DNA of 64,000 bases from an uncultured virus (IMG/VR IMGVR_UViG_3300006169_000035) (lineage: Duplodnaviria; Heunggongvirae; Uroviricota; Caudoviricetes): the IMG/VR virus record IMGVR_UViG_3300006169_000035; one strand, 5' to 3'. Shown here piece by piece: positions 23,630 to 55,992 of the stretch. A program made the translations under genes and the position numbers. A model generated the notes under the pieces. That model had not been told where the DNA came from and made no database searches. It saw only the letters and a program-made list of their open reading frames with translations. Within the stretch, counting starts at the first letter, position 1. Every line of letters begins with the position of its first letter.

Positions 23630-24040
23630 GTGATCGAGAGCGCCAGCCTTGCCGCACTTCGCGAGCATGCAACGCTGGACGAAGTATGGGAGCGAGCGAT
23701 CGAGATCGGATCTCGGCTTCGTGGAGGGGGTGACCTGGTCGAGCTCGCCGACGCGATCGACGATCTTGCCAGACACCTACGTCCGCCAAAGCTCGAAGGG
23801 ATCGTCGCCGAGCTCGCTCACCCCCAGATGTGGGCGACCCGAGAGCACGCGCTGCAGCTTGCCGCCTGGATCACCGACGCGGCCCGGATCATCTGCCGTC
23901 TACGAGACGATGCCGAGATCACAGGCAGCACCGCCACGATCGCCGACGCCGACGCGTGGCTGAAGTCCGTCGGAATCCCGTCCAAACCCGTCCCCGGCAC
24001 AGATCCTCCGCCAGATCCGCCAGACGACGCGCCCGCGTAG
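23630..24040 (+). CDS. Hypothetical protein
   Basis: GTG start 6 nt after TG-c-TACGCT. Confidence 0.5.
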   Translation: MIESASLAALREHATLDEVWERAIEIGSRLRGGGDLVELADAIDDLARHLRPPKLEGIVAELAHPQMWATREHALQLAAWITDAARIICRLRDDAEITGSTATIADADAWLKSVGIPSKPVPGTDPPPDPPDDAPA

Positions 24041-24057
24041 AGCTTTTGGTAGGGTCG
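24041..24057 (+). promoter_or_regulatory. 17-bp motif AGCTTTTGGTAGGGTCG (putative -10 TAGGGT), copy 1
   Basis: Identical copy at 32451-32467 on the minus strand; TAGGGT is 6 nt before ATG 24062. Confidence 0.6.
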
Positions 24058-24061
24058 ATCC

Positions 24062-24556
24062 ATGCCCAAGCGCAAGACCTGGGTCTGGGTCGGAGTCGGA
24101 TCCGCTGCATTGCTCACCGCTGTTGCCGCGGCTGGAGTGGTCACCTACCGACGGCGCAAGAAGGCGAAGGAGCTCACGCTCGTCGACCTCACGGTCCCGC
24201 CGCCGCCTCGTCCCACGAGAACGACGCCTTCGGAAGTACTCGACGCGGAGATCTGCACGCAGTGGAAGACCGGAAACCATCGTCCGAGGTGGAGACCAGC
24301 TCTCTTCGACCGCGTCAACGAAGCGCTCGCGGTCGCGATGACGACGATCGATCCGCAGTGGAGAAACGAGGCTCAACGAGGCCGCAAGGCCTTCCAGATC
24401 GCTCGTACTGCGCTCGGCAGCATGTGCCCCTCAGTCCCTCTGCCCCGCGACGAGGCTGAGGTCGAGGAGCTCAGCCAGAGGTTCTACTGGGACGAACTCT
24501 GGGGTCGTCTCTACGCGAGCTCGATCAACATGCTCGCCGACTACGGTCCGAGCTAG
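24062..24556 (+). CDS. Single-pass membrane protein
   Basis: MPKRK-TM-YRRRKK, Pro-rich linker, helical domain ending MCPSVPLP...W. Confidence 0.7.
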   Translation: MPKRKTWVWVGVGSAALLTAVAAAGVVTYRRRKKAKELTLVDLTVPPPPRPTRTTPSEVLDAEICTQWKTGNHRPRWRPALFDRVNEALAVAMTTIDPQWRNEAQRGRKAFQIARTALGSMCPSVPLPRDEAEVEELSQRFYWDELWGRLYASSINMLADYGPS

Positions 24557-24679
24557 CCAAGGGAACTCCCTTCGAGCAGCCTCCAGGCGCCTGTCGGTTC
24601 GGTCGAGGATCATCCACACGGTCTTCACGCCCGGGAGCATCGGCGAGCCCCACGGGGACTTGAGGTAGAATGTGGCCCG

Positions 24680-25006
24680 ATGGCGAACTTCGAGTACCCC
24701 GAGGCCGGCATCGACGCCTCTCCGGGCGTCAAGCAGGACATCCAGGCCTTCCGCCGGCTCCCGGTGATCCAGCGCCAGGGCGTCCCACTTCTGTACTACC
24801 TGCTCGGATCAGGGACGCCGCCCTACAAGATGGACGCCGTCGAGTCCGCCTACCAAGATGAGCCCAAGCGCGTATTGCTGATCGCCGAGCAGAACTGCGC
24901 CAACTGCAGTGCGAGCTACATCCACGCCAAGAGCGGCAACTGGATCTGCGATCAGATCAGCCCTTTCATCGCGCCTCAGGGATGGTGCCGCCTGTGGCGG
25001 CCGTGA
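24680..25006 (+). CDS. HiPIP-like four-Cys iron-sulfur domain protein
   Basis: AYQDEPK...NCANC...C...I.PQGWCRLW. Confidence 0.6.
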   Translation: MANFEYPEAGIDASPGVKQDIQAFRRLPVIQRQGVPLLYYLLGSGTPPYKMDAVESAYQDEPKRVLLIAEQNCANCSASYIHAKSGNWICDQISPFIAPQGWCRLWRP

Positions 25007-25452
25007 AGCTCGAGCCGTCGCCGATCGTAGTGGTGACCGGAGGCCGCGACTTCGAAGGATCAGCCGGGGACGAGCGCCGACTGGTCGAGCTTCTCGACGA
25101 GTTCCGTCCGAGGATCGTGCGGCACGGCGGATGTCGAGGCGCCGACACGTGGTCCGGGTACATCGCGCACAACCTCGGGATGCACGTCGAGGTGTGGCCC
25201 GCAACGCAAGCCGACGCGCAGCGCTGGGCGTCGCGCATGGACTACGCACGGATCGTCTACCCGCCGAGCTGGGCTCGCTGGCCTTCAGCCGGCCCCAAGC
25301 GCAACGTGGCGATGCTCCTCGGCAACGGGCATCCAGCCGGCCAAGTCATCGCGTGTCCAGGTGGGACCGGAACGATGCGCTGCATCGAGGCCGCGACAAC
25401 GATCGCTCCTGTCACCTTCTTGCACGACGCGGATTCCGTCGCTGCACGTTGA
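25003..25452 (+). CDS. YspA/SLOG-family (DUF2493-like) protein
   Basis: VVVTGGRDF, HGGCRGAD, AGPKRN, PGGTGT. Confidence 0.85.
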   Translation: MKLEPSPIVVVTGGRDFEGSAGDERRLVELLDEFRPRIVRHGGCRGADTWSGYIAHNLGMHVEVWPATQADAQRWASRMDYARIVYPPSWARWPSAGPKRNVAMLLGNGHPAGQVIACPGGTGTMRCIEAATTIAPVTFLHDADSVAAR

Positions 25453-25969
25453 GCAGCTCGATCGCTCTTCGAACGTGACCGATCTGCAAGCCACCCGTGG
25501 CGAAGTCGGTCTGGACGTGCCAGGGCGAGAGGTGTTCCATGTCGTCGTCATCGTCGAGGATCACGAAGGCGGCGACGTCGTCAGCGCTGTCGAGCCACTG
25601 CTGGATCTCGTAGCCCCGTGGGTACGGCTCCTGCGGATGCGGTCTGCGACCTGCGTAGCGAGCGAAGACATCCGGGTCGTGTTCGGAGGGGATCGGCGTT
25701 CGGCCGATCATGGCGCCCGTCATGCCTCGGCGATCTCGAAGAGCGTTCGCGGTGTCCTCCCAGGTGTGGAAGGTGCGCCACGTGCTGCTGAGCACCACGA
25801 CGGCGTCCGTAACCTCGGTGATCATGTTGAGGCGAGCGATGCAGGCAGGATCGGTGGAGTGCTGCACGTCGTCGGCGTACGTCGGGTTGCGGACACGGGA
25901 CCCACGAGTCTCGGCCCACTGCTGGCTGTTGAGCACGCCGTCGATGTCGAGGAAGACGACCTTCTTCAT
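25412..25969 (-). CDS. HAD-superfamily phosphatase (Swiss-Army-knife RNA-repair type)
   Basis: FLDIDGVLN, VLSSTWR, RGYEIQQWL, FVILDDD. Confidence 0.88.
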   Translation of the reverse strand: MKKVVFLDIDGVLNSQQWAETRGSRVRNPTYADDVQHSTDPACIARLNMITEVTDAVVVLSSTWRTFHTWEDTANALRDRRGMTGAMIGRTPIPSEHDPDVFARYAGRRPHPQEPYPRGYEIQQWLDSADDVAAFVILDDDDDMEHLSPWHVQTDFATGGLQIGHVRRAIELLNVQRRNPRRARR

Positions 25970-26304
25970 CGCGCATTCGATAGTACCGGATCGGAGCCAA
26001 GGAGTCCTTCGCGTCGCATCCACGTCCACGCGGCCACTACGACGTCGCCGTGGCACGGACGAGGCTTGCAGCTGCAGACGAGGAGATCACCGGGCTTGAT
26101 CCGGCGCATCTCTTCCATCACCGCCACGTCCCGCTGGCGGATCTTCTTCCACAACCACTTGCGGTACAGCTCCAGCGCGCTCGAGCCGTGCTCGGCAACG
26201 GTGTACGGGTTGCCAAGCGGAGTACCCCTACCGATGTACCGAGCTCCACGAGGAAGTCCGGTACGGCGGTAGTGGTGCCGGTTGACGACCTGCGGAGGCG
26301 TCAC
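25966..26304 (-). CDS. DUF4326 family protein
   Basis: YIGRGTPLGNPY...Y.KWL...LVCSCKPRPCHGDVV. Confidence 0.88.
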   Translation of the reverse strand: MTPPQVVNRHHYRRTGLPRGARYIGRGTPLGNPYTVAEHGSSALELYRKWLWKKIRQRDVAVMEEMRRIKPGDLLVCSCKPRPCHGDVVVAAWTWMRREGLLGSDPVLSNAR

Positions 26305-26777
26305 TGCGAGGACTCAGCCTGCTTGAGCTTTCGCGCTTCAGCGTCAGCCCGCATCTTTTCACGCGCCTTGCGCTGCTCGTTCCGATGTCCCCGTCCATCG
26401 GGATCGCATCGATCGCAGGCGTACCCGAGATCTCTATGCTCGATCGACGTCGGTGCCTCGTGACCGTGCCAGTCACGAAAGCTCCGCGCCGCGATGGCGT
26501 GCAGACCACGAAGGGCTGCTGACGCACCACCAAAGGCGGACGCAAAGGGAGGGGAGAACAGCAGCCGCAGCAGGTTGTGCTCACCTTCCACGAGTGCGTG
26601 GAGCGTGTAGTCGCAACACTCGATTTCGACCAGCCATCGGTTCTGGCGCTCATCGATCGGCCAGTAGATCTTGCCGGCGAGCTCCGGACACCCGTCATCC
26701 GCGTCTCCAGACGTACTGATCGTCGGGTGCTCAGAGAACCCGTTGGACTTCAGGTAGTCCCCCCCAGCTCGATCCAT
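26301..26777 (-). CDS. Hypothetical protein
   Basis: 158-aa ORF, GGAAGG upstream, coupled to DUF4326. Confidence 0.5.
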   Translation of the reverse strand: MDRAGGDYLKSNGFSEHPTISTSGDADDGCPELAGKIYWPIDERQNRWLVEIECCDYTLHALVEGEHNLLRLLFSPPFASAFGGASAALRGLHAIAARSFRDWHGHEAPTSIEHRDLGYACDRCDPDGRGHRNEQRKAREKMRADAEARKLKQAESSQ

Positions 26778-26867
26778 CCTTCCATTTTTCCCAAGGCACG
26801 TGCCTGCGTTGGAAATCGCCGTCGTAGACGGTGATCGTATGGTGTTCCTGTTGCGGATGTTCGTCGC

Positions 26868-27386
26868 TCATATCGCGTGTCCTGGTTGATGCCACGGCAC
26901 CGGGGCCAATCGCTTCGGGAGGTAAAGAGGATGCTCGGGGTGCCCTTCCTTCGTCCTACGCAGGCAGAAGGTCTCGACCCCGAGATCGCGCAGGACGGAC
27001 AGCACACGCGCGACAGCTTCAGGCTTCGCATTGGTGCCCCACCCGAGCACGACGAGCGCCGCATCCTTGCACTGCTCCTCGATGTGCCGCAGGTTGTCGG
27101 GTCCGTAGGGATCGTCGACCTCCCAGAGGCCCTTTGGATCGGTCGAGCGCAGCCCGTAGAGGTTGAGGATCACCATCGCAGGGTGACCCCAGCGCATCGT
27201 GAAGTCCTGGCAGCGACGCAGCGTGGGGTCGAGATCGGTCTCGTCTGCGGTGCTCGGGTTGAGCATGATCCATACGACGGCGGGTCCGATACCCCAGCGG
27301 CGCCAGAGCACGTAGCGGTAGACACGGTCCTCGTCGAAGATAGCGCCCGCCTCGTCGGCGGAACGAGCAAAGAGATCAGCTTGCAA
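26868..27386 (-). CDS. DUF1643 family protein
   Basis: YRYVLWRRW, IMLNPSTAD..DPTLRRC, NLY..RSTDP, GWG, GHPEHPLY. Confidence 0.9.
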   Translation of the reverse strand: MQADLFARSADEAGAIFDEDRVYRYVLWRRWGIGPAVVWIMLNPSTADETDLDPTLRRCQDFTMRWGHPAMVILNLYGLRSTDPKGLWEVDDPYGPDNLRHIEEQCKDAALVVLGWGTNAKPEAVARVLSVLRDLGVETFCLRRTKEGHPEHPLYLPKRLAPVPWHQPGHAI

Positions 27387-27754
27387 GAGCAGCCTCCTCT
27401 CGATTGCGCAGCACGTTGTCAGCGAACTCGATCCCCGACGGACTCAGGCCGAAGTACTTCTTGCCGAGTCGCCCCTGAACAGCGATCCCGATCCGAAGCA
27501 GTCGCCTGGCGTGCTTGAGGTCGGTACGATCGGTGAGGAAGATCGGTGTCTCGCTTTGCCGTATGCGGATCGCGAGATCCGTCTCTTCGACACTGACGGT
27601 CTCGTGCTTCCAGGCGACGTCCGTCTGCCAGTTGCTCACGCCGTGACTCGTCGAGAGGATCGGCGCGAGATCAGGTGCGCAGCTGTGAAGCCGGCAACCC
27701 CGAGCAGCGTGAGACCGAGGAGCAGGACGGGTGGACTCTTCCAGTTGAGCTTCA

Positions 27755-28783
27755 TCAGAAACATCCGTTGGCGAGACGCCGGGCGGCACGATGGAGCCGC
27801 GGGTTGTCGATGGTGAGCGCCCGACGGAGCGCCGAGCTGTTTCGCAGAAGTGGATCGATCTCGGACATGGCCTTCTCGTTGCCGGCGTCAGCCTCCGCAG
27901 CGAGCTCGGTGAGTCTGTCCATGCTCTCGACGTCGAGGACACCGCGCTTGTACGGCGTGTGGCTCGCCTTCGAGATCTCGGCCATGCGCCGCGTCTTCAC
28001 CTGAACCTCGACCGGTCGACCGTCGACCGAGACGATGTAGTGCATCGCGCGGTAGCCCTGTTGGGGCGTCTTGTAGTAGTCGACCTTCTCCAGGACAGGG
28101 AAGTCCTCCTCGATCGCGGAGGTCGCCTTGCGCAGGCCGGCCTCGTCGGGCACGACGATCCGTGTGCCAGCGATGTCCGTCAGCGTGTCGAGGCGCTTGC
28201 GGCGAAGCTTGTTGACGATCGAGAACGGGGTCTTGACGCGGCCCTGGACTTTGGCCCCTTTGATCCGAAGCCCTTGCAGCCGATCGATCACGGTCTGCAT
28301 CGCCGGTAGGAACTCCTGCCGCGTGTCGATGAAGTGGCCGATTTCGTCCGAGAGCTGGACCTCCTCGATGCTCTTCTCGTCGCCGGCCTGAAACGGCCTC
28401 GGGTCGTCGACGTCCGGGATCGTGTCCGCGTCCGAGTCGTCGAAGACGGACGGGTAATCGCTGCGCCGGATCGGTCGCGGAGAGTTTGTCTCCCGCTCGA
28501 CCAGTGCCGGGATGCTGGACCATCCGGACTCGACAGCGACGGCGTAGGTGCTGTTGCCATCCAGAACCCTTCCGTCATGAGAGATCGAGATCGGGGCACG
28601 CTTGGTGCCGCCGGCACACGCCGCCTCCATGTGCTTGCGCGCGTTCACGATCCCGCTCGGCCGAGCACGGATCGGCTTGAGCTCGGCGATCGGCACAAGG
28701 ATCGTGCCGCGAGGTCGCGTGAAGTAGCTCCACGGCGACTCCGGCAGCGAGGCGCACTCCACGTTATGACGTCGCCGTGCCAT
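27755..28783 (-). CDS. ParB/Srx-like domain fused to RelA/SpoT small alarmone synthetase domain
   Basis: PISISHDGRVLDGNSTY; synthetase motifs GRVK..SI..KL, DIAGTRIV, GYRAMH, VEVQVKT. Confidence 0.85.
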   Translation of the reverse strand: MARRRHNVECASLPESPWSYFTRPRGTILVPIAELKPIRARPSGIVNARKHMEAACAGGTKRAPISISHDGRVLDGNSTYAVAVESGWSSIPALVERETNSPRPIRRSDYPSVFDDSDADTIPDVDDPRPFQAGDEKSIEEVQLSDEIGHFIDTRQEFLPAMQTVIDRLQGLRIKGAKVQGRVKTPFSIVNKLRRKRLDTLTDIAGTRIVVPDEAGLRKATSAIEEDFPVLEKVDYYKTPQQGYRAMHYIVSVDGRPVEVQVKTRRMAEISKASHTPYKRGVLDVESMDRLTELAAEADAGNEKAMSEIDPLLRNSSALRRALTIDNPRLHRAARRLANGCF

Positions 28784-29739
28784 GTCCAGATCTTACAGCA
28801 ACCGAGCCTCAAAAGAGTTCCTGCTGCCCTGGCTTCGGAGGAGGCACCAGGGAAGCAGGTTCTGGCGGTTGGGTTTCTTGCTTGGGAGCCGCCTTCGGGA
28901 TCTCGTCGGTCTTCGGAGGCGCTACGGGTTGTTCCTTCACGGCTCGAGCTCGCACGTCGACGACGGTGTCGTCAGGAGCCAGACGCACGAACCGATCGTG
29001 CAGCGTGAGGACGATGTGCCAGTCCGTCGTGACGGCGACGGCCTCGATCGTCTCGCCGTTCCACGCGTCGCCGATCTTCCAGCGCTTAGCGTGCTCTGCT
29101 CGAGCCATCGCTTCCGATCCGACGCTCATGCGTCCTTGTTCCGGCGCTCGGCGAGGTTGCAAGCGGCGATGATCTGCCGGGCCCATGCTCGCGCAGCCTT
29201 GGGTGTCATCGACCGTTCTTCATCCTCTGACACGCGCACCAGTACGCGAAACGAACCGTTGATCGTCGTGACGGACGCACCGACGTCGCTCTTCGTGGGG
29301 TAACGGACGATGGGCTCTTCGAGTTCGACGAGGATCGCTCGACCAAGGGGCGTAGCGTCGGAGACTTCGAGGCCCATGGCAGTCGCCGACGCCACATAGC
29401 CGGCGAGCGTAGGCTCGAACTGCAGCTGCCAGTGGCAGTACTTCGTCCAGATCTTAGCCCACGTGGCACCGTCATGGCTCGTGCGCAGCGCGATGGAGAG
29501 CTGCTCGATGATGGCTGCGACATCGCCGGCGTCGCGCTCACGAGCCAACGACGCCGACAGGATGCGACCTTCGAGCTCCTCGACGATCCTGATCGCACGC
29601 TGATGACGCGAGTGGTTGAGAACTGCCTTCGCAGAAGGCGTGAAGGCCGAAGCTTCTAGCATCGGAGATCCTTTCGGGTGAAGCGGCTCCTCGCCGCGTT
29701 GTGTCCGAGCTCGCTTGCGCTTGCACGAACGACACGAGA

Positions 29740-30075
29740 ATGCCATCGTCGAAGAGCGCCGTCAACAAGTCGGCGAAACAAGCGGCGAGGAGCCGCTTCA
29801 AGGAGAACGACATGGCGAAAGCGATGCGCAGGCGCTCATCTTCGATGCGCCCCGAAACGTACTGGAGACTGTTGCAACTCGTCCGCAAGGGCATAGCCGA
29901 AAGCGGATCGGCGATCATCGAGCGAACGGTCAACGACCTCGCCGACGCACACGGGATCCGCAAGGTGAGCCGCGAAGAAGCGTCGAGCATGCTCAACAAG
30001 GAGCAACGCAAGGGCAGACCGCCGGGTCCGGTCCCGAAGACGGAAGAGATCGTCTCGCAGCACTTCACCTTCTGA
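29740..30075 (+). CDS. Small basic protein, possible ribbon-helix-helix regulator
   Basis: RRSSSMRPETYWRLLQLVRKG..SGSAIIERTV. Confidence 0.45.
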   Translation: MPSSKSAVNKSAKQAARSRFKENDMAKAMRRRSSSMRPETYWRLLQLVRKGIAESGSAIIERTVNDLADAHGIRKVSREEASSMLNKEQRKGRPPGPVPKTEEIVSQHFTF

Positions 30076-30300
30076 TGGGCGCCGTCAATCCCAAGCAACG
30101 GCGCGAGCTCCATCAGAAGCTCGACGCTCTCATCGACGATCACGATGGCGGAGCCGAAGGAGCCTACGGCTTCCTACTTCTTCGCGAGGTCGATGTTCCC
30201 GACGGTGCGCACCGCAAGCGCAGCGTCGTAGCCCAGGGATGGATCGGCAAGAAGTCGTGGATCCTCTACGACCTCATCCGCCGCCTTCGAGGCCCGGACG

Positions 30301-30339
30301 AATAAAGAGACGGGCGCCTCGGTGAAGAGGCGCCCGTCA
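30301..30339 (-). terminator. Intrinsic terminator between convergent genes
   Basis: GACGGGCGCC (30309-18) pairs with GGCGCCCGTC (30330-39); TCTTTATT follows on the minus strand. Confidence 0.65.
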
Positions 30340-30390
30340 TGGCGAAAGGCTCCCCGTCATGCCGCTGCCAGAGAGCCGCCTCGAAGCGTA

Positions 30391-30864
30391 CTACAGCACC
30401 CCTGCGTCCTGCAGGATCCCGCGAAGGGTGAGCGCCTTCGTGAAGCCCATCGAGCTGACCAGATCGCGTTCGAGTTGCTGACGCTGATCGTCGGTCCACT
30501 CGACGAGATCGACCCCGATCGGCTGCAGCGTCTGCGAGAACGCTTCGTCGGTCGCCTGGCGGGTCGCGTCGAGGATCGCCGGCCACCAGGTGGCAGGCAT
30601 GGCGTTGCGGGCGGCAACGAGCGCGGCGTCGTCGAGTTCGGTCACGAGTTCGCCCAGGCGGGCCGCCAGCGGGCCCGGCTGTGGGTCACCCGAGGAGGCC
30701 GGAGCAGGTCGCAAGGGCGCCGTGGGCTGCCCTGGCGGCGTCGGATAGCGGGGTTCCCGGGGTCGCGCCGCGGCCCGTGCGACGCCGTAGCCGGCTGCAG
30801 AGACGAGGCCCACAGCGGCAAGGACGCCGAGCACCGTCAGAACTCTGCGCGATCGGCGTGTCAT
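30391..30864 (-). CDS. Single-pass membrane protein
   Basis: MTRRSRR-TM-Pro-rich linker-helical domain. Confidence 0.65.
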   Translation of the reverse strand: MTRRSRRVLTVLGVLAAVGLVSAAGYGVARAAARPREPRYPTPPGQPTAPLRPAPASSGDPQPGPLAARLGELVTELDDAALVAARNAMPATWWPAILDATRQATDEAFSQTLQPIGVDLVEWTDDQRQQLERDLVSSMGFTKALTLRGILQDAGVL

Positions 30865-31778
30865 ACGGTCTCGGCCGCGTCCTCGTGGTGGACCCGCTGA
30901 GCTCGAACGAGGTAGCGCGTCGGGTCGAGGATCCCAAGCGGCGGCGCGTCGCCCTTCCACCACTGCATCTCGCCGCGTCGGATCTGTTCGACCGTCACTC
31001 CGGGCGCGTAGGTTTCGACGTGCAGCATGTGACTGCCGTCGTCGCTGACACCGACGCGACCGAGTTCGTCTCCGGCTTTGACTCGTGTTCCAGCCGCGAC
31101 GTCGAAGTCTCTCCAGCTGCCGCGTTCGATCTCGCCATAGTTGACGATGACGCCGCCGTCGGTGAGCAAGTAGAGCGCTCCGGTCCCCTTGTAGAACGGG
31201 AGCGCGGCGAGCACTTGACCGCCCTCGGTCGCGACGATGACATCGCCGGGATCAGCGAACAGATCGACGCCGACGTGGACGCGCTCCGCCCCGGTCTTCT
31301 TGCTCTTGCGTGTCGCTCCGAACTCGCGGCCCCATCTCCCGTGCCACTTCCCGCGCACGTCCTGATACGAGACCTGAAGCTTCCGCTTCGCGTTCGTGTC
31401 GATCGGCCACTTCGGTCGATCTCCGCCGACGGCGAACTCCACGTCGGTCTTCTTGCGGGGTTCGAGTTCGGAGGGGAGCGTGCAGAACTCGCTTGCCGGC
31501 GCCGACAGTGCAGCGGCGTCGTCGGGATCTTCGGGCCCGATGCAAGGTGCGTCGAACTCGTCATACTCGATGTCGGCCGGCTCGTCCTCGACGACCTCGT
31601 CGTCGTAGTCGAGCAGATCGGGCAGCTCGTAGTACGGGCTGTAGCCGTGGTCGGGGATCCGAGTGCGCCTGCGTCCGACGACGGCTCCGATCGCGACGCC
31701 AATCCCAACGCCTGGCACTGCGACGAGTAGCACCTGCTGCCATCGCGGTCGCTGACGCCACCAGGTCGAGATCGTCAT
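30861..31778 (-). CDS. Membrane-anchored M23-family peptidoglycan endopeptidase
   Basis: N-terminal TM; HVGVDL, VKAGDELGRVG, LHVE. Confidence 0.88.
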   Translation of the reverse strand: MTISTWWRQRPRWQQVLLVAVPGVGIGVAIGAVVGRRRTRIPDHGYSPYYELPDLLDYDDEVVEDEPADIEYDEFDAPCIGPEDPDDAAALSAPASEFCTLPSELEPRKKTDVEFAVGGDRPKWPIDTNAKRKLQVSYQDVRGKWHGRWGREFGATRKSKKTGAERVHVGVDLFADPGDVIVATEGGQVLAALPFYKGTGALYLLTDGGVIVNYGEIERGSWRDFDVAAGTRVKAGDELGRVGVSDDGSHMLHVETYAPGVTVEQIRRGEMQWWKGDAPPLGILDPTRYLVRAQRVHHEDAAETV

Positions 31779-32450
31779 CGCTGATCAGCTCCTCGCAGGA
31801 GACCATCGACGACGGACTTCGTCTGACCTCTGCGCCACAGCTCCAAGGTCACGTCGTCGGTGACGTCGACCCAGTTGATCTCCGGCCGAGGAGGATCGGG
31901 CAACCTTGTTGGTCCGTACACCACATGATGCGGGCAACAGCACTGGTGTTGAGCCATCGGATCAGATCCTGCCGCGGGCTCGAGCCCGCAGGTACGCGAC
32001 GCCTCGCCGGATCGCGAGCCTTGCAGGCCCGATCTTCGGGACGGCTGCGCGAGCTCGTGCAAGGGCGACTGTGTCGCGTCGGAGTTCATCGGTGAGCCAT
32101 CGCGGACATGTTTCGAGACCGGGCGTGCACGCGCCTCGTGTCCCTGGTCGCCCAGGAAGATCGGGCCAACTGCAGCGGTAGATCCCGGTCGACATGAGCT
32201 TGCAGCACGCGTCCTTGACGAAGACGCAGTCGCCTCCGAGTACGCGGGCCTGAGCGGCGACGGCATTGACACGTGCCTGCGCGAGAGCAGGCACCGTGAT
32301 CGGACGAAGCGTGCTCATCGAGACCTCCGCTTCGGCCGCCGTGACCACGGCCGCGGCTCGGCCTTGGCGACCTGCCAGCCGAACCATCCGGCAGCGAGCA
32401 TCTCGACGGCGAGCCAACCCCAGAACAGCTTGTTCTTGACCGTCACCATC

Positions 32451-32467
32451 CGACCCTACCAAAAGCT
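32451..32467 (-). promoter_or_regulatory. 17-bp motif AGCTTTTGGTAGGGTCG, copy 2
   Basis: Exact reverse-complement match to 24041-24057; heads the leftward unit that includes the M23 gene. Confidence 0.6.
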
Positions 32468-32491
32468 GCGCTGGCCTGCGTATGATGGGGT

Positions 32492-32722
32492 GTGGGCGTC
32501 AAGATCGGCACCAAGAACACCAGGAAGTCAAGCGGCGGCAAGGCCGAGGCGGCGGTCGCGGGCTCATTTGGGCTCGGCGATGCCGTGGAAACGGTTGCGA
32601 AGCCCGTCGCGAACCTCCTCGGGATCAAGAACTGCGCGCCTTGCCAACGACGCAAGGCCGTGCTCAACGCGATGAGCTCGCGCGCAAGCGCACGCGTGAA
32701 GGCCTTCTTCAAGCGAAGCTAG
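32492..32722 (+). CDS. Small phage-type protein with GLGD...CxxC..R...LN motif
   Basis: GLGDAVETVAKP....GIKNCAPCQRRKAVLN. Confidence 0.65.
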   Translation: MGVKIGTKNTRKSSGGKAEAAVAGSFGLGDAVETVAKPVANLLGIKNCAPCQRRKAVLNAMSSRASARVKAFFKRS

Positions 32723-32734: not shown

Positions 32735-34138
32735 ATGCCGTACGCAGTCTTGTCGGAGAACGGAGAGGTACAGCTCGTCGAAAGCAGCCTGCGGCGCGCT
32801 GTCGATGCAGCCGAGAACGCTGGAGCGCTCGACGTCGTCATCGACACCGCGCCGACGGGGCGTCGACATAACCCGCCTCCGCGAGGCGAAGGCGCGCTCA
32901 AACAGCTGCGCCTGCCTGGCGGTCCGCAGCTCGCGATCCCAGCGGAGGCGTGCGACATGCCGCTGCGGGATGCGTGGCAGAACGTCAGAGCGAAGACGGA
33001 ACCGTTCACGCAGACCGGTCGCACGGGAATCGTCAGGCAGTTCTACCCCGCCGAGAAGTCGGCGACGCTCGTCAAGAGCATGCTCGGCCAGAACGCCAAG
33101 ACGGAGAAGAAGAAGGGGCACGCCGAGAACGTCGACGTCCAGGGCCTCAATCTCACGCCCTACTGGATGTTCGCCAACGAAGGCAAGCCGCTCGACGAAG
33201 TTCTGCACAGCAGCAAGCGCTTGCCGAACATGTGCGCCGGCAGCACCGAAGCGTGCCGTCACAGCTGTCTCGTCTTCGCCGGCCAGAACTACGCCGCCGA
33301 CTGGTCGATCTACGCCAAGTTCCTCAAGACGCGGATGCTCTTCGACGATCCGGTGTCGTTTGGGCGCCTGCTCTACGCCGCGTGCGAGCGTCACTATCGC
33401 AACTCGCCCAAGCACGGTTTCCTTCCAGCGGTGCGGCTCAACGTGCTCTCCGACGTCCCATGGGAGCTCGTGTTTCCCGAGCTCTTCGTGCGGCTGCCGG
33501 GTCTGCAGTTCTACGACTACACGAAGGTCCCAGGACGGGAGCCGCCGGCAAACTACGACCTGACCTTTTCCAACAGCGGCGGCAACGTCAAGCTCGTCGA
33601 GAAGCACCTCGCACAAGGCGGTCGCGTCGCCGTGGTTGCGCACGTGCCCGAGTGGCGCTTCGGTCCTCCAGTGCCTCCACGCAAGGAAGAGAGCAAGGCC
33701 GACTATGAGGCGCGCAAGGAAGAAGCGGCGCACAAGCTGTGGGTGCAGCGACTCCCGAAGTACTGCGAGATCGGCGGTCGCCGCTACCCTGTCATCGACG
33801 GCGATCGCAATGACGTTCGGTTCCTCGACAGCAAGCCGGCCATCGTCGCCCTGCGCTGGAAGAACCCCGGAGGCCAAGCAGCAGCTCGGGCTGCCGGTGC
33901 GCTCGGGATCAGCCAGCGCACCATGTTCGTCACCGAGATCGAAGACTTCTGCGGCTTGTGGATCGGAGCGGTGACACCATCGGAACAGCCCGACACGTTG
34001 GAGCCGACCGTCTACAATCTCACGCCGCTCGAAGCCAATCCCGGTGGCTCTCGAAGATCGAACCGCTGGGGCACGGCTCGAGCCGGCTACGGCGATGACA
34101 GGGCTCGACGAGCCGCCAACAGACTTGTCAACGGCTAG
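32735..34138 (+). CDS. GP88-like phage protein (Cys triad) with NP-bounded extensions
   Basis: MCAGSTEACRHSCL, RLNVLSDVPWE, QFYDYTK, NYDLTFS, VIDGDRNDVRFLD. Confidence 0.75.
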   Translation: MPYAVLSENGEVQLVESSLRRAVDAAENAGALDVVIDTAPTGRRHNPPPRGEGALKQLRLPGGPQLAIPAEACDMPLRDAWQNVRAKTEPFTQTGRTGIVRQFYPAEKSATLVKSMLGQNAKTEKKKGHAENVDVQGLNLTPYWMFANEGKPLDEVLHSSKRLPNMCAGSTEACRHSCLVFAGQNYAADWSIYAKFLKTRMLFDDPVSFGRLLYAACERHYRNSPKHGFLPAVRLNVLSDVPWELVFPELFVRLPGLQFYDYTKVPGREPPANYDLTFSNSGGNVKLVEKHLAQGGRVAVVAHVPEWRFGPPVPPRKEESKADYEARKEEAAHKLWVQRLPKYCEIGGRRYPVIDGDRNDVRFLDSKPAIVALRWKNPGGQAAARAAGALGISQRTMFVTEIEDFCGLWIGAVTPSEQPDTLEPTVYNLTPLEANPGGSRRSNRWGTARAGYGDDRARRAANRLVNG

Positions 34139-50571: not shown

Positions 50572-51351
50572 TTACGGATTGCTCAGCCGGTTCGCCAGTC
50601 GCTTCTGGCGTTCGGGGTTGTTCGCGAGGTCGCCCTGTCGCTCGCGCTCGTAGGCACCAGGGTTCCCCTGGCGAGCCCTGACGCCCATCGCGGAGAACGT
50701 ATCCGCTGCTGCCTTCTGGCTCGGCGCTCCGGGTCCGCATACCGCCTTGGCACGACGGGCACTCGGGCGCTTGCCGCCGGTGCGCTTGCGACTTCCCGAA
50801 CCGACGACGCACGCGGCCTTCGTCGACTTCGAGATCCGACCTGAGCGCTTCGCGACCGGAAGCGGCGTCTTGCGCTTCTTCTTGCCGCGCTTCTTGCCAC
50901 GCTTCTTCTTGCCGGCCTTCTTGCCGCGCTTCTTCTTCGGCGGGTTGTCGTCGCGCATCTCGGCGTTCGAGGCGACGGCCCGAGCGCGCTTCTTGCTGCG
51001 ACGCTTGGCGCCCTTCTTCCCGCGCTTCTTCCCGCGACGCTTCTTGCCGACCTTCTTGCGACGCTTCTTGCCGGCCTTCTTCGCGACCTTCTTGCGACGT
51101 CGCTTGCCGACCTTCTTGCCGGCCTTCTTCCCGCGCTTCTTCCCGCGCTTCTTCCCGCGACGCTTCTTGCCGACCTTCTTGCGACGCTTCTTCTTGCCGG
51201 CGGGAGCCTCGGCCGAAGCGGCCTTCTTGCGGCGCTTCTTCTTGCCGCCCTTCTTCTTGCCGCGGCGCTTGCCGGCCTTCACGGCCGTGCTGCCGGCCTT
51301 CTTGCCGCGGCGCTTGCCGGACTTCTTGGATGCTGTCTTGGCACGAGCCAT
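50572..51351 (-). CDS. Lys/Arg-rich histone/protamine-like protein
   Basis: KKRGKK / KKVGKKRR repeats over about 170 aa; GAGGAG RBS; AAG/CGC codon bias. Confidence 0.85.
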   Translation of the reverse strand: MARAKTASKKSGKRRGKKAGSTAVKAGKRRGKKKGGKKKRRKKAASAEAPAGKKKRRKKVGKKRRGKKRGKKRGKKAGKKVGKRRRKKVAKKAGKKRRKKVGKKRRGKKRGKKGAKRRSKKRARAVASNAEMRDDNPPKKKRGKKAGKKKRGKKRGKKKRKTPLPVAKRSGRISKSTKAACVVGSGSRKRTGGKRPSARRAKAVCGPGAPSQKAAADTFSAMGVRARQGNPGAYERERQGDLANNPERQKRLANRLSNP

Positions 51352-51390: not shown

Positions 51391-51693
51391 TCAATGGTCG
51401 AGTAGTAGATGCAGGTGCTTGCGAAACTGCTGCAGGAAGTCGTCCGCGGCGACCGTTTGCGAGGTCTCGGTGGCGTCCCGGAGTTCCCGCTGCAGCTTCG
51501 TCAACGCGGAGCGTGAGAGATCCGCGTCACCGATCGGAAATCCGTGGATCCACATCCGCTGCTGGACGAGCGGTAGATCAGCGCGGAGCTGGATGAGCTC
51601 ACGCTGAGGCGCCCTCGCGGCAGGATTCACGGCCTTGGCCCGGCGAGCCCACGGCCGCACGCGCACAGGAGCAGCAAGTGCCTTGCGAGTCAT
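51391..51693 (-). CDS. Hypothetical protein with basic-NP leader
   Basis: MTRKALAAPVRVRPWARRAKAVNP...; ATGA coupling. Confidence 0.55.
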   Translation of the reverse strand: MTRKALAAPVRVRPWARRAKAVNPAARAPQRELIQLRADLPLVQQRMWIHGFPIGDADLSRSALTKLQRELRDATETSQTVAADDFLQQFRKHLHLLLDH

Positions 51694-52655
51694 CTCGACT
51701 CCCCTCGGGCGAGTCGACGCGCCATGTTGCGGATCCGTTGTTGCTCGGTCCGCTCGCTCACCGAGCGAGGGCCCCACGGGTTGAGAGCTCGAGCCGGGCG
51801 GTAGACGATCTTCTGCGGGTTCGGCTCGGATCCGCCAGCGAGTCGTACCAGGGCGTTAGGGTTCGCATGGCGCCCTCGCAGGAGCTTCTTGTAGTCGCCT
51901 GGTCGCACGTCGAGTTCGAGATCGGCGTCGCGCGGATATCCCTTGTCGATCAGCTTCGCGACGTCTTCGAGCGGCACTTCGACGACGTCGACAAGGCGAT
52001 CTCCACGAAAGAGGAAGTACGCCTCCTTGGGACCACCACTTCCGATCCAGCTGGTTGGCGTGACGCGGATGAGCGTCATGCCAGAAGATGGGTTGTGCTC
52101 CTTCTCGATCGTGGCGAGCTTCCGATAGTAGTCGCGATCCTCGACGAGATGGTCCATGGCGATCGCGAGAGCCGTGTCCGTATCGTCCGTGTGTTCGAGC
52201 TCCACCTTCAGCCCGCGGACGACCTCGGCCGTCTTGAACTCGTCTGCGGTGCGGCCGTCGGCAAGACCGCCGCGTCGAGGCGCTCGCCAACCCTCATGCT
52301 GGCGAGCCTTGACGTGGCACTTGATCTTGTCGTCGCTCATCGGTCCCGGATTTCCTTTGCGATCGGAAAGCTCGGCTTCGTAGACAGCTCCCGATGGGTC
52401 CACGATCCATCCGTTGACCTTGGTCGTTCCCGGCTTGTATTTGCCGAGATCTTCGGTCTCGAACCCGATGAAGTTCACGGGGCGCATGAAGCTCGAACCC
52501 GGAATGACCACGCGGTTCTTGCCGTCCTTGCGGGCGTAGTGTGCAGCGGCCACGATCGCGTACTCGGTGTTCTCCGGGTGGGCGCGCCAGTTCGCGACGG
52601 CGCGCTTTGGCTTCGCGCTCACCTGACCCAACCGATCGCCTCGCGTGACCTTCAT
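51690..52655 (-). CDS. NP-punctuated multi-module protein containing a DUF5661-like domain
   Basis: GLKVELEHT....ALAIAMDHL.E..DYY.KL flanked by KGNP and EHNP; 5 NP. Confidence 0.75.
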   Translation of the reverse strand: MKVTRGDRLGQVSAKPKRAVANWRAHPENTEYAIVAAAHYARKDGKNRVVIPGSSFMRPVNFIGFETEDLGKYKPGTTKVNGWIVDPSGAVYEAELSDRKGNPGPMSDDKIKCHVKARQHEGWRAPRRGGLADGRTADEFKTAEVVRGLKVELEHTDDTDTALAIAMDHLVEDRDYYRKLATIEKEHNPSSGMTLIRVTPTSWIGSGGPKEAYFLFRGDRLVDVVEVPLEDVAKLIDKGYPRDADLELDVRPGDYKKLLRGRHANPNALVRLAGGSEPNPQKIVYRPARALNPWGPRSVSERTEQQRIRNMARRLARGESR

Positions 52656-53404: not shown

Positions 53405-55684
53405 TCAGCCCGGGTTCGCGAGTCGAGCCGCTGCTCGGCGCTCGCAGATGTTCGCGCAGTGGCAGGGGTTGCCCGCCTTCGGCTGCGCTGTCATCACGCG
53501 CTCGTAGTACGCCTTGTCGATGTTGTCGGTCGAACGGATGACGACGTAGTCGCCGTAGCGCTTGTCCTCCCAGACCGACTGCGCGGTACCGTGGTGATCG
53601 GCTCGAGCCTGGGCGTACTTCTTCGCGAGCGCCAGGTCGTCGAGGCTCACGCCGCCCTTGTCCTTCACCCACGCCTCGTTGAGGCCCTTCGGGTTCGAGG
53701 ATCGAGGCTTGACCGGCGGCGGACCGCGACGACCACCGCGCTCCCACTTCTCCCGCTCCTTGCGGTACTTCGCGAGTTCGACCGCGTCGCCCTTGTAGGG
53801 GTTCTTTCGCTTACCCTCCTTCGTGTACTCGGTACGAAGAACATCGCGAGTCTCACGCCCAAGCGACGTCAGCCCATCGTCGTCGACGAGCTCCATGCGA
53901 TCGAGCAACAGCCACACCTTGTCTGGTATGTGCTGACGCGCTTGTGCTCCACCGGCCGCCGCGAACAAGGCTTTGATGTGGCGACCCGTCGGTTTCTTGT
54001 CCAAGGACATAAGCTCCTCGGCAGCATCACGGGCCTTATTGCGTTCGCTGTTGCGGGCAGGATTGCGGCCAGGCTTGGCCTCCTTCTTCTGGCGTCGCCT
54101 TGGGTTGCTCTGCTTGCGCTCCTCGGCTGCATCGATCGCGGAGTAGACGACGTTGTCCATCTCTGCCGAGAGCTTCTCGTACGACTTGCGCAGCTTCTTG
54201 TCGGAGTCGATCGCTCGCTTGAGGTTCTCCCAGTCGGGCCCGTCGATGTTCTCCCAGAAGCCGACGCCGTGGCCGACGAACGCAGCCCAAGTGTTGAAGG
54301 CGATGTCGTCCTCGGACTCGACGTCGTCGGTGCCCTCAAGGCCTGACGTGCTGCCCGGCGGCCTCTTCATCCACGCGTTCACGACGCGGTTCGCCTCGCG
54401 CGTGAACGCGTTCTTGGCGGCTTCGAGTTCCTTGGTGTGGTGGACCTCGTTCTCCACGTCGCTCGTCGTCAAATCGTCGCGTTCTTGGACCGCGCCTTCG
54501 ATCATGCCGTCGATCTCGAAGTCCACCCACTCGCTGGCGGAGTAGTGGCGCCCTTGGTTGGTCTTGCGACCGCGAGGGTTTTCGCTCTTGCGTGCGGCCT
54601 CGAAGGCCTTCTTTGCAGCCGCGTAGCTGCGGCGTGCGACCGCGTTGATGTCGTCGCCGAACGTCTCCTCCATCTCGGCGTAGGTCTTGGTGGACGGTTC
54701 CGCATCGACGTTGTCGGAGCCGTGATACCCCGCGCCCATTTCAGCGACGCGCCACTTCGCGAGCGGATCACCGGATGCGAGCTCTCGGATCTCTGCCTTG
54801 GTCGTGCCGTACGTGCTGGCGATCTCCCCGAGGTCGGACTTCATCCAGTCGAGCTGGTTTTCGAGGACGTCCTCGTCGGGATCGTACGGGAACCACCGAA
54901 CCTCGTAGGTTGCGGACTCGATCTCGTCCTCGTCCTCTGGTGCTTCCCAGAAGATCCAGCGCAACTCCTTGTACGTGGGGTCGTAGTACAGGATCCCTCC
55001 GCCGTGCGTCAGCGGATCGACGTCGCCGGTGCTGAGGATCGGAATGTTGCGCTCTGGGTTCTTCCGACCCTTCTTCTTCCCACTCTTCTTCTTCACGCTC
55101 TGCCTCTTCTTTCCGCGCCAGCCAGGTTCGATCCGATCGGCGATCGCGGCACAGTAGGCACCGGGATCGGAAACCTTCTTCTTCCCGCGGCGCTTGCTGA
55201 CCTTCTTGATGCAGCCGCTGACGCTGCCGCCGGGCATCTCCTTCATCGGGTTGCCCTTGCGACCTCGCTTCTTGCGACGCGGGTTGTCCTCGGAGTACGC
55301 CGCGCTCACCAGCGCCTCTTCGAGCATCGCGTAGGGCTCTTCGAGCTCCTTGCGGAGGCACGACGATATCTTCTGCCAACGGCGCTCGGTGGCATCGGGG
55401 TAGAACTCGTCCCATCTGCCATCCCAGATCCCGACGCCTTCGCCGGCGAGTGTCGCGTAGACGTCGTACGCGGTCCCCGGATCGTTGAAGAGCCGCGACG
55501 TGTTTCCCTTCGGAGGGAACTTCTTGAAGCAGGACTTGAGCGCTTCCTGGACGCTCTCCTCGAAGTAGACCGATGCGTCCCGTACCTCGTCAGGCATGCT
55601 GACCCGCTTGTCCGCGAGACCGTCGAGGACGAACTGCGCCCAGTCTTCAGGCGCATACTCCGGGTTCTTCTTCTTGCGTGCCAT
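53405..55684 (-). CDS. 759-aa NP-punctuated multi-module protein (putative polyprotein)
   Basis: 11 NP dipeptides in basic linkers separating mostly acidic modules. Confidence 0.8.
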   Translation of the reverse strand: MARKKKNPEYAPEDWAQFVLDGLADKRVSMPDEVRDASVYFEESVQEALKSCFKKFPPKGNTSRLFNDPGTAYDVYATLAGEGVGIWDGRWDEFYPDATERRWQKISSCLRKELEEPYAMLEEALVSAAYSEDNPRRKKRGRKGNPMKEMPGGSVSGCIKKVSKRRGKKKVSDPGAYCAAIADRIEPGWRGKKRQSVKKKSGKKKGRKNPERNIPILSTGDVDPLTHGGGILYYDPTYKELRWIFWEAPEDEDEIESATYEVRWFPYDPDEDVLENQLDWMKSDLGEIASTYGTTKAEIRELASGDPLAKWRVAEMGAGYHGSDNVDAEPSTKTYAEMEETFGDDINAVARRSYAAAKKAFEAARKSENPRGRKTNQGRHYSASEWVDFEIDGMIEGAVQERDDLTTSDVENEVHHTKELEAAKNAFTREANRVVNAWMKRPPGSTSGLEGTDDVESEDDIAFNTWAAFVGHGVGFWENIDGPDWENLKRAIDSDKKLRKSYEKLSAEMDNVVYSAIDAAEERKQSNPRRRQKKEAKPGRNPARNSERNKARDAAEELMSLDKKPTGRHIKALFAAAGGAQARQHIPDKVWLLLDRMELVDDDGLTSLGRETRDVLRTEYTKEGKRKNPYKGDAVELAKYRKEREKWERGGRRGPPPVKPRSSNPKGLNEAWVKDKGGVSLDDLALAKKYAQARADHHGTAQSVWEDKRYGDYVVIRSTDNIDKAYYERVMTAQPKAGNPCHCANICERRAAARLANPG

Positions 55685-55686
55685 CC

Positions 55687-55992
55687 TCATTTCCCTTCGG
55701 CGTAGTCGCGAGCTTCTTGCAGGGATCCTACAACAAGAGGCCTGCCCGACGACGGCTCGAGCTGCCAGCGTCCGTCTTCGAGTTCGTAGGTGACCCACGT
55801 GGTCCCGTTGATCCTGACGGTTAGCGCGTGGCCAAGCGGAGCCTGAGCGTGATCGATCCTCGACCACTGCAGACGCCTGGGGTTCCGCTGTCGTTGCTCC
55901 GGTCGCCGCACGAGCCTGTAGATCCCGTAGCTCACAGCTGCAACGCCGAGAGCTGCGCCTCCTGCAACGAGGATCTTCGTGGTGCGCGTCAT
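55687..55992 (-). CDS. Single-pass membrane protein with internal RQRNP
   Basis: KILVAGGAALGVAAVSYGIYRL. Confidence 0.7.
   Translation of the reverse strand: MTRTTKILVAGGAALGVAAVSYGIYRLVRRPEQRQRNPRRLQWSRIDHAQAPLGHALTVRINGTTWVTYELEDGRWQLEPSSGRPLVVGSLQEARDYAEGK

Follow-up and report, generated by a model that had tools for sequence, protein, structure and literature searches.

The minus-strand open reading frame (ORF) at positions 27755..28783 of a 64,000-nucleotide stretch of DNA from an uncultured virus (IMG/VR record IMGVR_UViG_3300006169_000035) encodes a protein predicted to consist of a ParB/sulfiredoxin (Srx)-fold module, a small alarmone synthetase (SAS) of the RelA/SpoT type and a short basic tail. 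The whole stretch, hereafter called the window, represents 64 kb of a 75,067-bp contig. The GC content at the third codon positions (GC3) of the ORF is 0.85, compared to about 0.64 for the GC of the window, which is the same profile as in the other credible genes of the window. The assignment of both domains, made with sequence profiles and structure models, is close to certain. The parts of the gene and the small ORF adjoining it, all on the minus strand, are listed below.

27755..28783, minus strand: whole ORF, ATG start, 342 aa and the stop codon; two domains, ParB/Srx-like and RelA/SpoT synthetase
28763..28783, minus strand: basic N-terminus MARRRHN, aa 1-7
28496..28756, minus strand: predicted ParB/sulfiredoxin-fold module, aa 10-96 (phmmer, profile, AlphaFold2 (AF2), Foldseek, VIA)
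28658-28669, minus strand: RARP within the module
28547-28561, minus strand: DGNST, invariant within the module
28355..28471, minus strand: conserved acidic segment, aa 105-143 (alignment columns, net charge -8)
27809..28354, minus strand: predicted SAS core, aa 144-325 (Pfam, alignment, model, Foldseek)
27944-28243, minus strand: Pfam RelA_SpoT match, aa 181-280
27758..27808, minus strand: C-terminal tail DNPRLHRAARRLANGCF, aa 326-342 (NP, then a basic helix)
27636..27764, minus strand: 42-aa ORF with a single predicted membrane helix and a 10-nt overlap with the synthetase stop; whether it belongs to the feature is uncertain

The first-pass annotation, made from the sequence of the window alone, had given the gene a -10 element of its own. 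The only candidate is TAAGAT (4/6 matches) immediately 5' of the ATG, which does not support a promoter, and a consensus scan of positions 26700-29900 returned 0 promoter-like and 0 terminator-like sites.

The synthetase and its ParB/sulfiredoxin-fold partner

The C-terminal two thirds of the protein is, by sequence and by model, an intact SAS. Pfam RelA_SpoT (PF04607) matches aa 181-280 with an E value of 1.8e-16 and 60.9 bits against a cut-off of 27, and it is the only Pfam family found at E<=1; therefore there is no HD hydrolase domain, in agreement with the first reading of the sequence. The NCBIfam models for long RelA/SpoT homologues (RSH) and for YjbM match the synthetase part only and far under their cut-offs, so that the domain has the make-up of a single-domain SAS, with neither the HD hydrolase nor the regulatory domains of long RSH proteins. 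In PHROGs the protein falls into phrog_4773, the function of which is not annotated. Among 5.8 billion proteins searched, 47 matches were obtained, 45 of them with PF04607.

The four synthetase motifs pointed out in the first-pass annotation are all intact, namely Syn1 RVK..S..K (GRVK at aa 181-184), Syn2 DIAGTR (aa 203-208), Syn3 GYRAMH (aa 243-248) and Syn4 EVQVKT (aa 259-264), and HTPYK is present as well. They were compared with the RSH patterns RxKxxxSxxxK, DxxGxR with the Mg2+ Asp, GYxxxH with the acceptor-stacking Tyr, ExQ and HxxYK, the motif names being conventional ones or those of PMC12226406. Residues R182, K184, S188, K192, R195, K196, D203, Y244, H248, E259, Q261, H275 and K279 are invariant across 25 aligned homologues, whose identity goes down to 30%.

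The profile of this alignment matched RelP (6fgk, E 1.8e-20) and RelQ (5f2v, E 3e-19) best among solved structures, followed by RelA and RelSeq (E 1e-16 to 1e-14), with CapRel reaching only 4e-8; no chain titled Tas1, Apk or FaRel was matched at E<=1. The AlphaFold model of the synthetase has a pLDDT above 90 across aa 150-320, and a Foldseek search with it likewise returned RelP/RelQ on top (E 5e-10 to 1e-8) and CapRel at rank 22. Since the motifs are intact and RelP and RelQ are the nearest solved matches, the domain can be regarded as a SAS whose closest characterised relatives make (p)ppGpp, and it is probably an active pyrophosphokinase.

The chances that the acceptor is guanosine-type (GDP/GTP) are about even. 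This acceptor is favoured because the family lies far nearer to RelP, RelQ and Rel than to CapRel, and because its Syn2/3/4 residues, GTR / AMH / VK, are nearer to the guanosine-type AVR / SxH / IR than to the RYT / GxN / YH of the (p)ppApp synthetase Apk, a signature which the protein lacks (both signatures as given in the available text of PMC12226406). The same enzyme fold might instead carry out a different chemistry, with (p)ppApp or tRNA as product or target, which we consider unlikely. Phage-borne precedents are Apk2, a MuF-fused enzyme described as making only (p)ppApp (PMC12226406, PMC10083569, in the parts available), and PhRel/CapRel, which act on tRNA according to the accessible text of bioRxiv 10.1101/2021.04.30.441581, where tRNA-targeting toxic SAS (toxSAS) are distinguished by surface charge. 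CapRel is found among both the profile and the fold matches, the protein matches the PADLOC candidate defence family PDC-S33 with an E value of 1.7e-15, and the synthetase core carries four net positive charges (+4) along with an invariant NKLRRKR stretch. This K..RRK stretch, however, is also aligned in RelP and RelQ, and the profile values (E 1e-20 to 1e-14 for RelP/RelQ/Rel against 4e-8 for CapRel), the guanosine-type Syn2/3/4 residues, the lack of Tas1, Apk or FaRel among the profile matches and the finding of no conserved antitoxin or immunity gene adjoining the synthetase in related loci all speak against a different chemistry.

Residues 10-96 are assigned, from profile and model comparisons, to a divergent ParB/Srx-fold module, and the ParB/Srx-like N-terminal domain proposed at first reading is thus borne out at the fold level by a profile match and two fold searches. 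A phmmer search with residues 10-105 against 1.84 billion cluster representatives (clusters at 50% identity) gave 445 matches at E<=1e-3 and 127 at E<=1e-10, and domain make-up was counted for 150 listed of the 445. Stand-alone proteins of 90-140 aa make up 28/150 of those listed, and 14/150 are longer than 1500 aa. The alignment of 29 stand-alone modules contains Y-F, R-x-R, K-R-x-P, W and an invariant DGNST. Its profile matches the Noc ParB_N domain over the whole domain (E 4.4e-4, 7.2e-4 and 9e-4), with DGNST placed opposite GERR. Pfam ParB_N was matched by 10/29 solo modules, the best E value being 4.2e-4 and all scores lying below the gathering score; the copy in the window has no Pfam match at E<=1, and no other Pfam family fits the solo modules.

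The AF2 model of the module, built with the 29 solo modules as the alignment, reaches a pLDDT of 93.3, compared to 35-69 for the N-terminal domain in the full-length AF2 model, where the alignment is shallow. All Foldseek matches listed for the module model are ParB, Noc, KorB, PadC, SbnI, serine kinase or sulfiredoxin. A VIA search of 48,161 chains gave 14 matches at Z>=2 and nine at Z>=5, all nine belonging to the ParB/Srx superfamily, the best being the free serine kinase SerK (Z 8.8, rmsd 2.4 over 77 aa), SbnI (Z 7.7) and Srx (Z 7.7). A complex prediction for the synthetase part (aa 105-342) and the module scored 0.00 in two runs, which carries no weight either way.

Identity with a partition ParB was rejected, as the module of about 87 aa has no HTH_ParB match and no GERR, and is followed by the synthetase with no C-terminal dimerisation domain; the invariant DGNST stands where ParB, Noc and KorB clamps have GERRxR (Box II). 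The element possesses a separate true ParB gene at 10808-11761. A DdrB-like ParB (PF18763) was rejected too, with no match to the window protein or to any of the 29 solo modules at E<=1; in homologue P0153 the PF18763 match at aa 693-826 adjoins the module at aa 596-686 and does not overlap it (P-numbers denote homologous proteins and L-numbers related loci, both as labelled within this analysis).

The module and the synthetase are frequently found together. According to a local synthetase hidden Markov model (HMM), 39/150 listed module-bearing representatives have the synthetase too, the module preceding it in 29 and following it in 10, and Pfam RelA_SpoT was found in 10/33 hand-picked module-bearing proteins. 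Out of 92 related loci fetched with the synthetase, 90 contain it: the module is located in the same ORF in 15/90, in a neighbouring ORF on the same strand, no more than 600 bp away, in 28/90 and is absent despite a flank of at least 1.5 kb in 23/90, leaving 24/90 in which the locus is cut. The two are therefore fused or adjacent in 43/66 assessable loci, counts which include duplicates of one contig from two collections and do not represent independent events.

Module relatives reach 3735 aa and carry a variety of further domains. In P0080, Phage_portal_3 (E 5.4e-76) is followed by the module and RelA_SpoT, in this order; P0081 and P0182 carry LPD38, ART-PolyVal and Acb1, P0121 a Strawberry-notch-type helicase, P0163 NUDIX, 2H and ART domains, P0054 and P0047 HicA, and P0048 is DUF5661 plus the module. 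The window protein and its relatives thus combine two or more unrelated effector-type domains shuffled among relatives, which is the definition used here for polyvalent proteins, and the pair keeps, judged by sequence, the same domain company as the polyvalent proteins described by Iyer et al. 2017.

The low-GC aquatic relatives L005 and L025 share only the synthetase and the module with the window. In both, the pair lies after a 1000-1086-aa protein ending in the module or in DUF5661 and about 8 kb from a DUF87 ATPase of about 270 aa, with peptidoglycan hydrolases between them in L025. The DUF5661 motif of the window protein encoded at 51690-52655 matches directly upstream of the module-synthetase ORF in L025 (9396-9527) and in 13 other loci. 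Because of these upstream matches in low-GC relatives and of P0048, DUF5661, the module and the synthetase can be considered a recurring trio.

Between the module and the synthetase core lies the acidic segment (aa 105-143, net charge -8) with the motif DYPxxFxDxDxDxIPDVDDPxP...SIEEVxLSDE. The first-pass annotation had described an acidic linker here. The acidic run, DSDADTIPDVDDP within aa 109-130, is indeed present, but its status as a linker did not hold, the segment being among the best conserved parts of the family: in 25 sequences Y110 and D127 are invariant and F114, D116, D126, P128, P130 and E140-V142 are conserved in at least 90%. These alignment columns mark it as an N-terminal extension peculiar to this synthetase family and not as a linker. 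The segment resembles calcium-binding DxDxD repeats, but this reading was rejected, Pfam giving no such match at E<=1.

Terminal peptides shared by unrelated proteins

The C-terminal tag noted at first reading, DNPRLHRAARRLANGCF at aa 326-342, was confirmed and is common to four other proteins of the window.

32735..34138, plus strand: GP88-family protein, ends ...RRAANRLVNG
50572..51351, minus strand: 259-aa poly-Lys/Arg protein, ends ...NNPERQKRLANRLSNP
51690..52655, minus strand: DUF5661-containing protein, ends ...MARRLARGESR
53405..55867, minus strand: modular protein of about 760-820 aa with basic-NP linkers, probable start MARKKKNP, ends ...RRAAARLANPG

The five proteins are otherwise unrelated and share a basic end of the type ..RRLANG / ..RLARG / ..RLSNP, usually a few residues past an NP dipeptide. 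Among 2850 C-terminal comparisons in the window, the top four pairs, and 7/12 of the best, all fall within the five-protein set. A strict regular expression for the tail matched 3/451 ORFs, all of them real genes of this set. The tail is still the extreme C-terminus in orthologues with the reversed domain order (P0006-P0008). In related loci, this tail type (class A) was found on 9/6520 ORFs, eight being in L013-L017 and the ninth, which is probably spurious, in L012; it occurs on further ORFs of L016 and L017 and on none in the low-GC loci.

Some synthetase orthologues have alternative ends, either ..LVKALKF or a hydrophobic helix, and GP88 homologues show the same alternatives as the synthetase homologues, ..RLARG and ..LVRRLKF. 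Class-B tails are carried by the synthetase homologues P0010, P0012 and P0026 and by the GP88 homologues P0199-P0203. The type of tail thus appears, from these sequences, to track the virus lineage rather than the protein family, as would be expected of an address or docking peptide. The comparison of one tail class per contig covers class A only, in the window, L016 and L017. A search of IMG/VR loci with the class-B-tailed GP88 homologue P0203 found nothing, and a search with the GP88 alignment gave at least 590 distant relatives (identity of 38% or less), none of the window's lineage. An IMG/VR scan with back-translated ARRLANG returned at least 120 stretches; among the matches listed, 13 lie within 5 codons of a stop and none has the NP context, so the scan is uninformative on the tail.

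For the 820-aa tailed protein the structure model has a pLDDT of 0.51 and a protein atlas search gave no usable match. The 259-aa protein (50572-51351, minus strand) consists nearly entirely of Lys/Arg/Gly/Ala repeats, is protamine- or histone-like and may be a candidate DNA-condensing protein.

At the other end of the synthetase protein, the RRRH-N leader of the first-pass annotation is present as MARRRHN at aa 1-7, but it lacks the Pro of M-[AST]-(R/K)n-NP and is unremarkable in an unbiased N-terminal comparison; in the all-against-all comparison the similarity of RRRHNV is weak. Orthologues begin with MARRRNP, MRRRNP or MARKRNSP, placed before the leading domain whether that is the module or the synthetase. 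Within the window, the clear M-x-(R/K)n-NP leaders belong to six consecutive genes at 55997-60214, in most of which a hydrophobic helix follows the leader, as in an ordinary signal-anchor.

Basic-NP motifs are also abundant elsewhere in the predicted proteome, which contains 28 [RK][RK]x0-2NP motifs against 1.5 +/- 1.4 in shuffles and 55 NP dipeptides against 24 +/- 5. Basic runs followed by NP cluster at the N-termini and apparent domain borders of genes 51690-59459, nine of them in the 820-aa protein, and they part domains in synthetase homologues as well, for instance in P0008 and P0017. Such punctuation could be a processing site or a style of linker.

The element, its neighbouring genes and the proposed function

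The window contains genes for an integrase, the true ParB, a sliding-clamp homologue, a Dda-like helicase, DUF2786/DUF7168, DNA methyltransferases, an M23 peptidase, an SLT transglycosylase, GP88 and sugar-modifying enzymes. PHROGs families were matched by 19/62 ORFs, including the Dda-like helicase, the sliding clamp, phrog_421, phrog_3193 and phrog_3230. GP88 is present in 263 phage records as well as in at least 590 contigs of viruses, and one relative is annotated as a 'minor head protein' in one phage record. The only large, packaging-type ATPase of the window is

364-2124, minus strand: HerA/FtsK/VirB4-like ATPase (DUF87, E 3e-14; phrog_2666; weak VirB4-type NCBIfam match, E 2e-7).

The element is most probably a temperate virus, possibly a non-tailed one, rather than a conjugative element. 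An integrative conjugative element or plasmid, in which the Arg-rich tail would be a type IV secretion-type signal sending the tailed proteins into recipients together with DNA, is very unlikely. T4SS (type IV secretion system) substrates do bear basic C-terminal signals. The sole large ATPase is HerA/VirB4/FtsK-like, the SLT transglycosylase, the M23 peptidase and several small membrane proteins encoded in a row would suit such an element, and no capsid, portal or terminase gene was recognised in the 64 kb; polyvalent proteins occur in conjugative elements too, according to the available text of PMC5512222. Against this, the window yielded neither a relaxase nor a coupling protein nor a full VirB4, a blastn search of positions 25000-32000 against plasmids gave no match, and the PHROGs matches and the wide occurrence of GP88 in phage records and viral contigs point to a virus, as does the DUF87 ATPase of about 270 aa carried by the low-GC relatives. 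ATPases of this size are found in membrane-containing viruses. In the low-GC relatives this gene (L005:18827-19639, L025:18883-19689) comes right after a conserved protein of about 330 aa, and these relatives may, from their gene content, be large non-tailed viruses.

The synthetase gene is part of a block running from the M23 peptidase to the synthetase, DUF1643, HAD_SAK_2 and, nearby, SLOG (YAcAr), which is syntenic with L013, a 52-kb contig. The accessory part (24982-27386 in the window, L013:11163-15596) contains DUF1643 (E 6e-40), HAD_SAK_2 (E 9e-27), the phosphatase of 'Swiss Army Knife' RNA-repair proteins, and the YAcAr/SLOG gene; these domains, concerned with nucleotide or RNA-end handling, might act on the chemistry of the synthetase. 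The 42-aa ORF at 27636-27764 (minus strand) is 74% identical over 35 aa to L014:4197-4301, which likewise lies directly after the synthetase gene; among the related loci compared it recurs in L014 only, and L013 has an unrelated 119-aa ORF at this position. These loci contain no homologue of the ORF lying upstream, 28809-29186.

With this neighbourhood, the protein might be not a cargo but an accessory gene product made inside the infected or lysogenic cell, as part of the nucleotide/RNA-end block or as a superinfection-exclusion toxin like Phrann gp29, a possibility that we rate as somewhat unlikely. The module would then be a sensor or autoinhibitor, or the small downstream ORF an antidote, and the tail would bind a replication or membrane partner. 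The synteny of the block between the window and L013, the integrase and ParB genes, which point to a temperate or plasmid-like lifestyle, and the 42-aa membrane ORF kept on the stop codon in L014 are all in line with this, and PhRel of Phrann is a precedent for prophage defence (PMC7229694, in the part available). However, the downstream partner is not conserved, the unrelated ORF of L013 being the case in point, and the module is missing from close orthologues and hence is no obligatory cis-antitoxin. The portal fusion and the giant polyvalent relatives suggest delivered proteins instead, and the tail is common to a polybasic protein of the DNA-condensing type and to GP88 with its 'minor head protein' relative.

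The explanation that we prefer, with a probability of about 0.5 as a whole, is that the product of 27755-28783 is an intact effector with two domains, belonging to a phage-like mobile element. The synthetase domain would use ATP to pyrophosphorylate the 3'-OH of a purine nucleotide. With GDP/GTP as the likeliest acceptor, the product would be (p)ppGpp, and with no hydrolase to reverse it, host growth and translation would be throttled. The module, presumably nucleotide-binding with DGNST replacing GERR, is an evolutionary companion of the synthetase, fused on either side, split into a neighbouring gene or absent, and the pair belongs to the polyvalent effector-domain repertoire of phages. The tail would be a docking signal that brings the proteins to one shared partner, for which the assembling particle is the most plausible candidate, and the enzyme would act at or soon after entry. 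Delivery of the window protein in the virion, suggested by analogy with the portal-fused and polyvalent relatives and by the shared tail, is a tentative proposal with somewhat less than an even chance.

Several observations weigh against this explanation. No terminase, portal, capsid or HK97 capsid gene was recognised within the 64-kb window, which is the scope of all negative findings on structural genes here; because of this, the virus status rests on phage-type accessory and replication genes. The synthetase gene itself sits amid accessory genes (DUF1643, HAD_SAK_2, SLOG) and not among recognisable structural genes, and no structural partner was identified. A single tail pair scores 24-31, which corresponds to the 99.9th percentile to the maximum of the shuffled null, so the case for the tail rests on the clique of five proteins and on conservation among orthologues. 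The synthetase and tail occur without the module in the closest syntenic relative, L013, and in P0011, P0013 and P0014, which makes the module a frequent yet dispensable companion. Being dispensable, it is hardly an obligatory autoinhibitor, and the regulation by the N-terminal domain suggested in the first-pass annotation found no support, with close orthologues such as P0011 and L013 having no module. As the Box II arginine, usually required for nucleotide binding by ParB-fold proteins (bioRxiv 10.64898/2026.05.05.722872, in its available part), is replaced in the module, its nucleotide binding can only be presumed. Finally, swaps of Syn motifs failed to turn Apk2 into a ppGpp synthetase (PMC12226406, available part), and for this reason the Syn signatures are weak predictors of the acceptor.

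The earlier suggestion of a Myxococcus host and of a link to its development was free association, nothing in the analysis pointing to Myxococcus. The nearest genome-borne homologues of the synthetase are located in metagenome-assembled genomes (MAGs) of Bacteroidota (37-49% identity) and the named GP88 relatives in Planctomycetota; neither amounts to a host assignment. A megablast search of positions 20000-36000 against phage records found no match, and tblastn of the synthetase protein against 50,697 phage records gave six weak matches at 31-33% identity, none from a mycobacteriophage. The sequencing-run listing showed small shares (0.17, 0.07 and 0.00) within one study and no RNA run.

Some other genes of the window are worth describing. 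The first 100 or so residues of the 396-aa protein encoded at 34849-36039 (plus strand) recur at the start of two L013 ORFs, 2947-3243 and 18522-18776; this pattern of a shared anchor with variable tips is, as a sequence pattern, typical of fibre or spike proteins. The Laminin_G_3 protein at 39367-40263 matches 'virion structural protein' PHROGs. The region 36044-41705 encodes a sulfotransferase, a CmcI-type rhamnosyl O-methyltransferase (E 2e-63), other methyltransferases and a glycosyltransferase-like protein, an unusual cargo at 75 kb. ARAGORN predicted a 97-nt tRNA-Val(GAC) at 31013-31109 (plus strand), antisense inside the M23 peptidase gene, which is probably a false positive judging by its length and place.

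Known phage alarmone synthetases include prophage defence toxins and (p)ppApp toxins fused to MuF; to our knowledge, none has been shown to travel in the particle. Should the enzyme only make cytoplasmic (p)ppGpp, it would be one more accessory gene of an uncultured phage. The locus points to a large ParB/Srx-fold family (445 clusters at 50% identity) for which Pfam has no model, with an invariant DGNST and a preferred synthetase partner, and this compact two-domain protein allows the effect of the pair on nucleotides to be asked about; the conserved acidic extension of the synthetase is a further testable feature. The tail, shared by unrelated proteins, behaves like an address label that seems to vary from one virus lineage to another. 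If it is a packaging signal, it would represent a natural cargo-loading system and a sequence handle for finding injected effectors.

In a bolder version, which is a doubtful extrapolation, the exchangeable C-terminal peptides of the lineage (..ARRLANG/..RLARG, ..LVKALKF, the membrane helix) would form a cargo-loading code, and the DGNST domain and the synthetase a two-enzyme nucleotide weapon acting at entry, maybe in a non-tailed virus with a HerA-type packaging ATPase. The particle cargo would then include the synthetase with the module, GP88, the protamine-like DNA binder, the DUF5661 protein and the modular 800-aa protein. Such a tail code is the part with the most upside, as it would reach beyond the synthetase gene.

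Relation to known systems

The comparisons below refer to the available parts of the articles cited. RelA/SpoT domains were predicted among injected phage polyvalent effectors by Iyer et al. 2017 (PMC5512222). Like those polyvalent proteins, the window protein is phage-encoded and joins a RelA/SpoT nucleotidyltransferase to a ParB/Srx-fold domain in an order that is shuffled among orthologues, and relatives of its module carry LPD38, ART-PolyVal, Acb1, an SNF2-like helicase, NUDIX and 2H; in both cases packaging and injection are predicted only. It differs from them in having two domains within 342 aa with no MPTase or other peptidase, in a module that is not DdrB-like and has DGNST in place of the conserved arginine motif, and in the lineage-tracking tails, which are not mentioned in the part of PMC5512222 available.

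MuF-fused Apk2 (PMC10083569, PMC12226406) is likewise a phage synthetase of the RSH fold with no hydrolase, for which co-injection with DNA was proposed. The link to the virion is MuF in Apk2, compared to the portal in the relative P0080 and the shared tail here; the window protein itself has neither a MuF nor a portal domain, its Syn2/3/4 residues are of the guanosine type and, unlike in Apk2, the genes beside the synthetase in the window include none recognisable as a Tis1-like or Aph-type immunity gene.

RelP (YwaC) and RelQ (YjbM) are the best profile and fold matches, and the window synthetase shares with them all Syn motifs and the single-domain synthetase architecture. It is only 20-27% identical to them in fold alignments and differs in the extra acidic segment, the module, the tail and the location on a mobile element. 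The toxSAS enzymes CapRel, PhRel/Phrann gp29, PhRel2, FaRel2 and FaRel (PMC7229694, bioRxiv 10.1101/2021.04.30.441581) are also SAS of phages or prophages with no hydrolase, the fusion to a second domain recalls the fused CapRel, and the window protein matches PDC-S33; unlike for them, no conserved bicistronic antitoxin was recognised for the window gene, and its similarity to CapRel is much weaker than that to RelP/RelQ.

The module resembles Srx, SerK/SbnI and ToxB (bioRxiv 10.64898/2026.05.05.722872) in being a bare ParB fold with no helix-turn-helix (HTH) or dimerisation domain. SerK, SbnI and Srx, its best structural matches, use ATP/ADP. The contact-dependent inhibition (CDI) toxin ToxB demonstrates that such a ParB fold can itself be a toxin, one which needs the Box II residue R108 (bioRxiv 10.64898/2026.05.05.722872); in contrast to ToxB with R108 and ParB with GERR, the module has the invariant DGNST.

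A literature search returned no paper uniting a small alarmone synthetase, a ParB-like domain and phage, its scope leaving aside the FTP supplements of Iyer et al. and the RSH datasets of Jimmy et al., which may list the clade or the module. The theme of phage polyvalent effectors and MuF-fused alarmone synthetases is already known in outline, and what appears to be new here, as far as can be judged from sequence, is a compact synthetase that has both a distinct ParB-fold partner, marked by DGNST, and a terminal peptide specific to the lineage.

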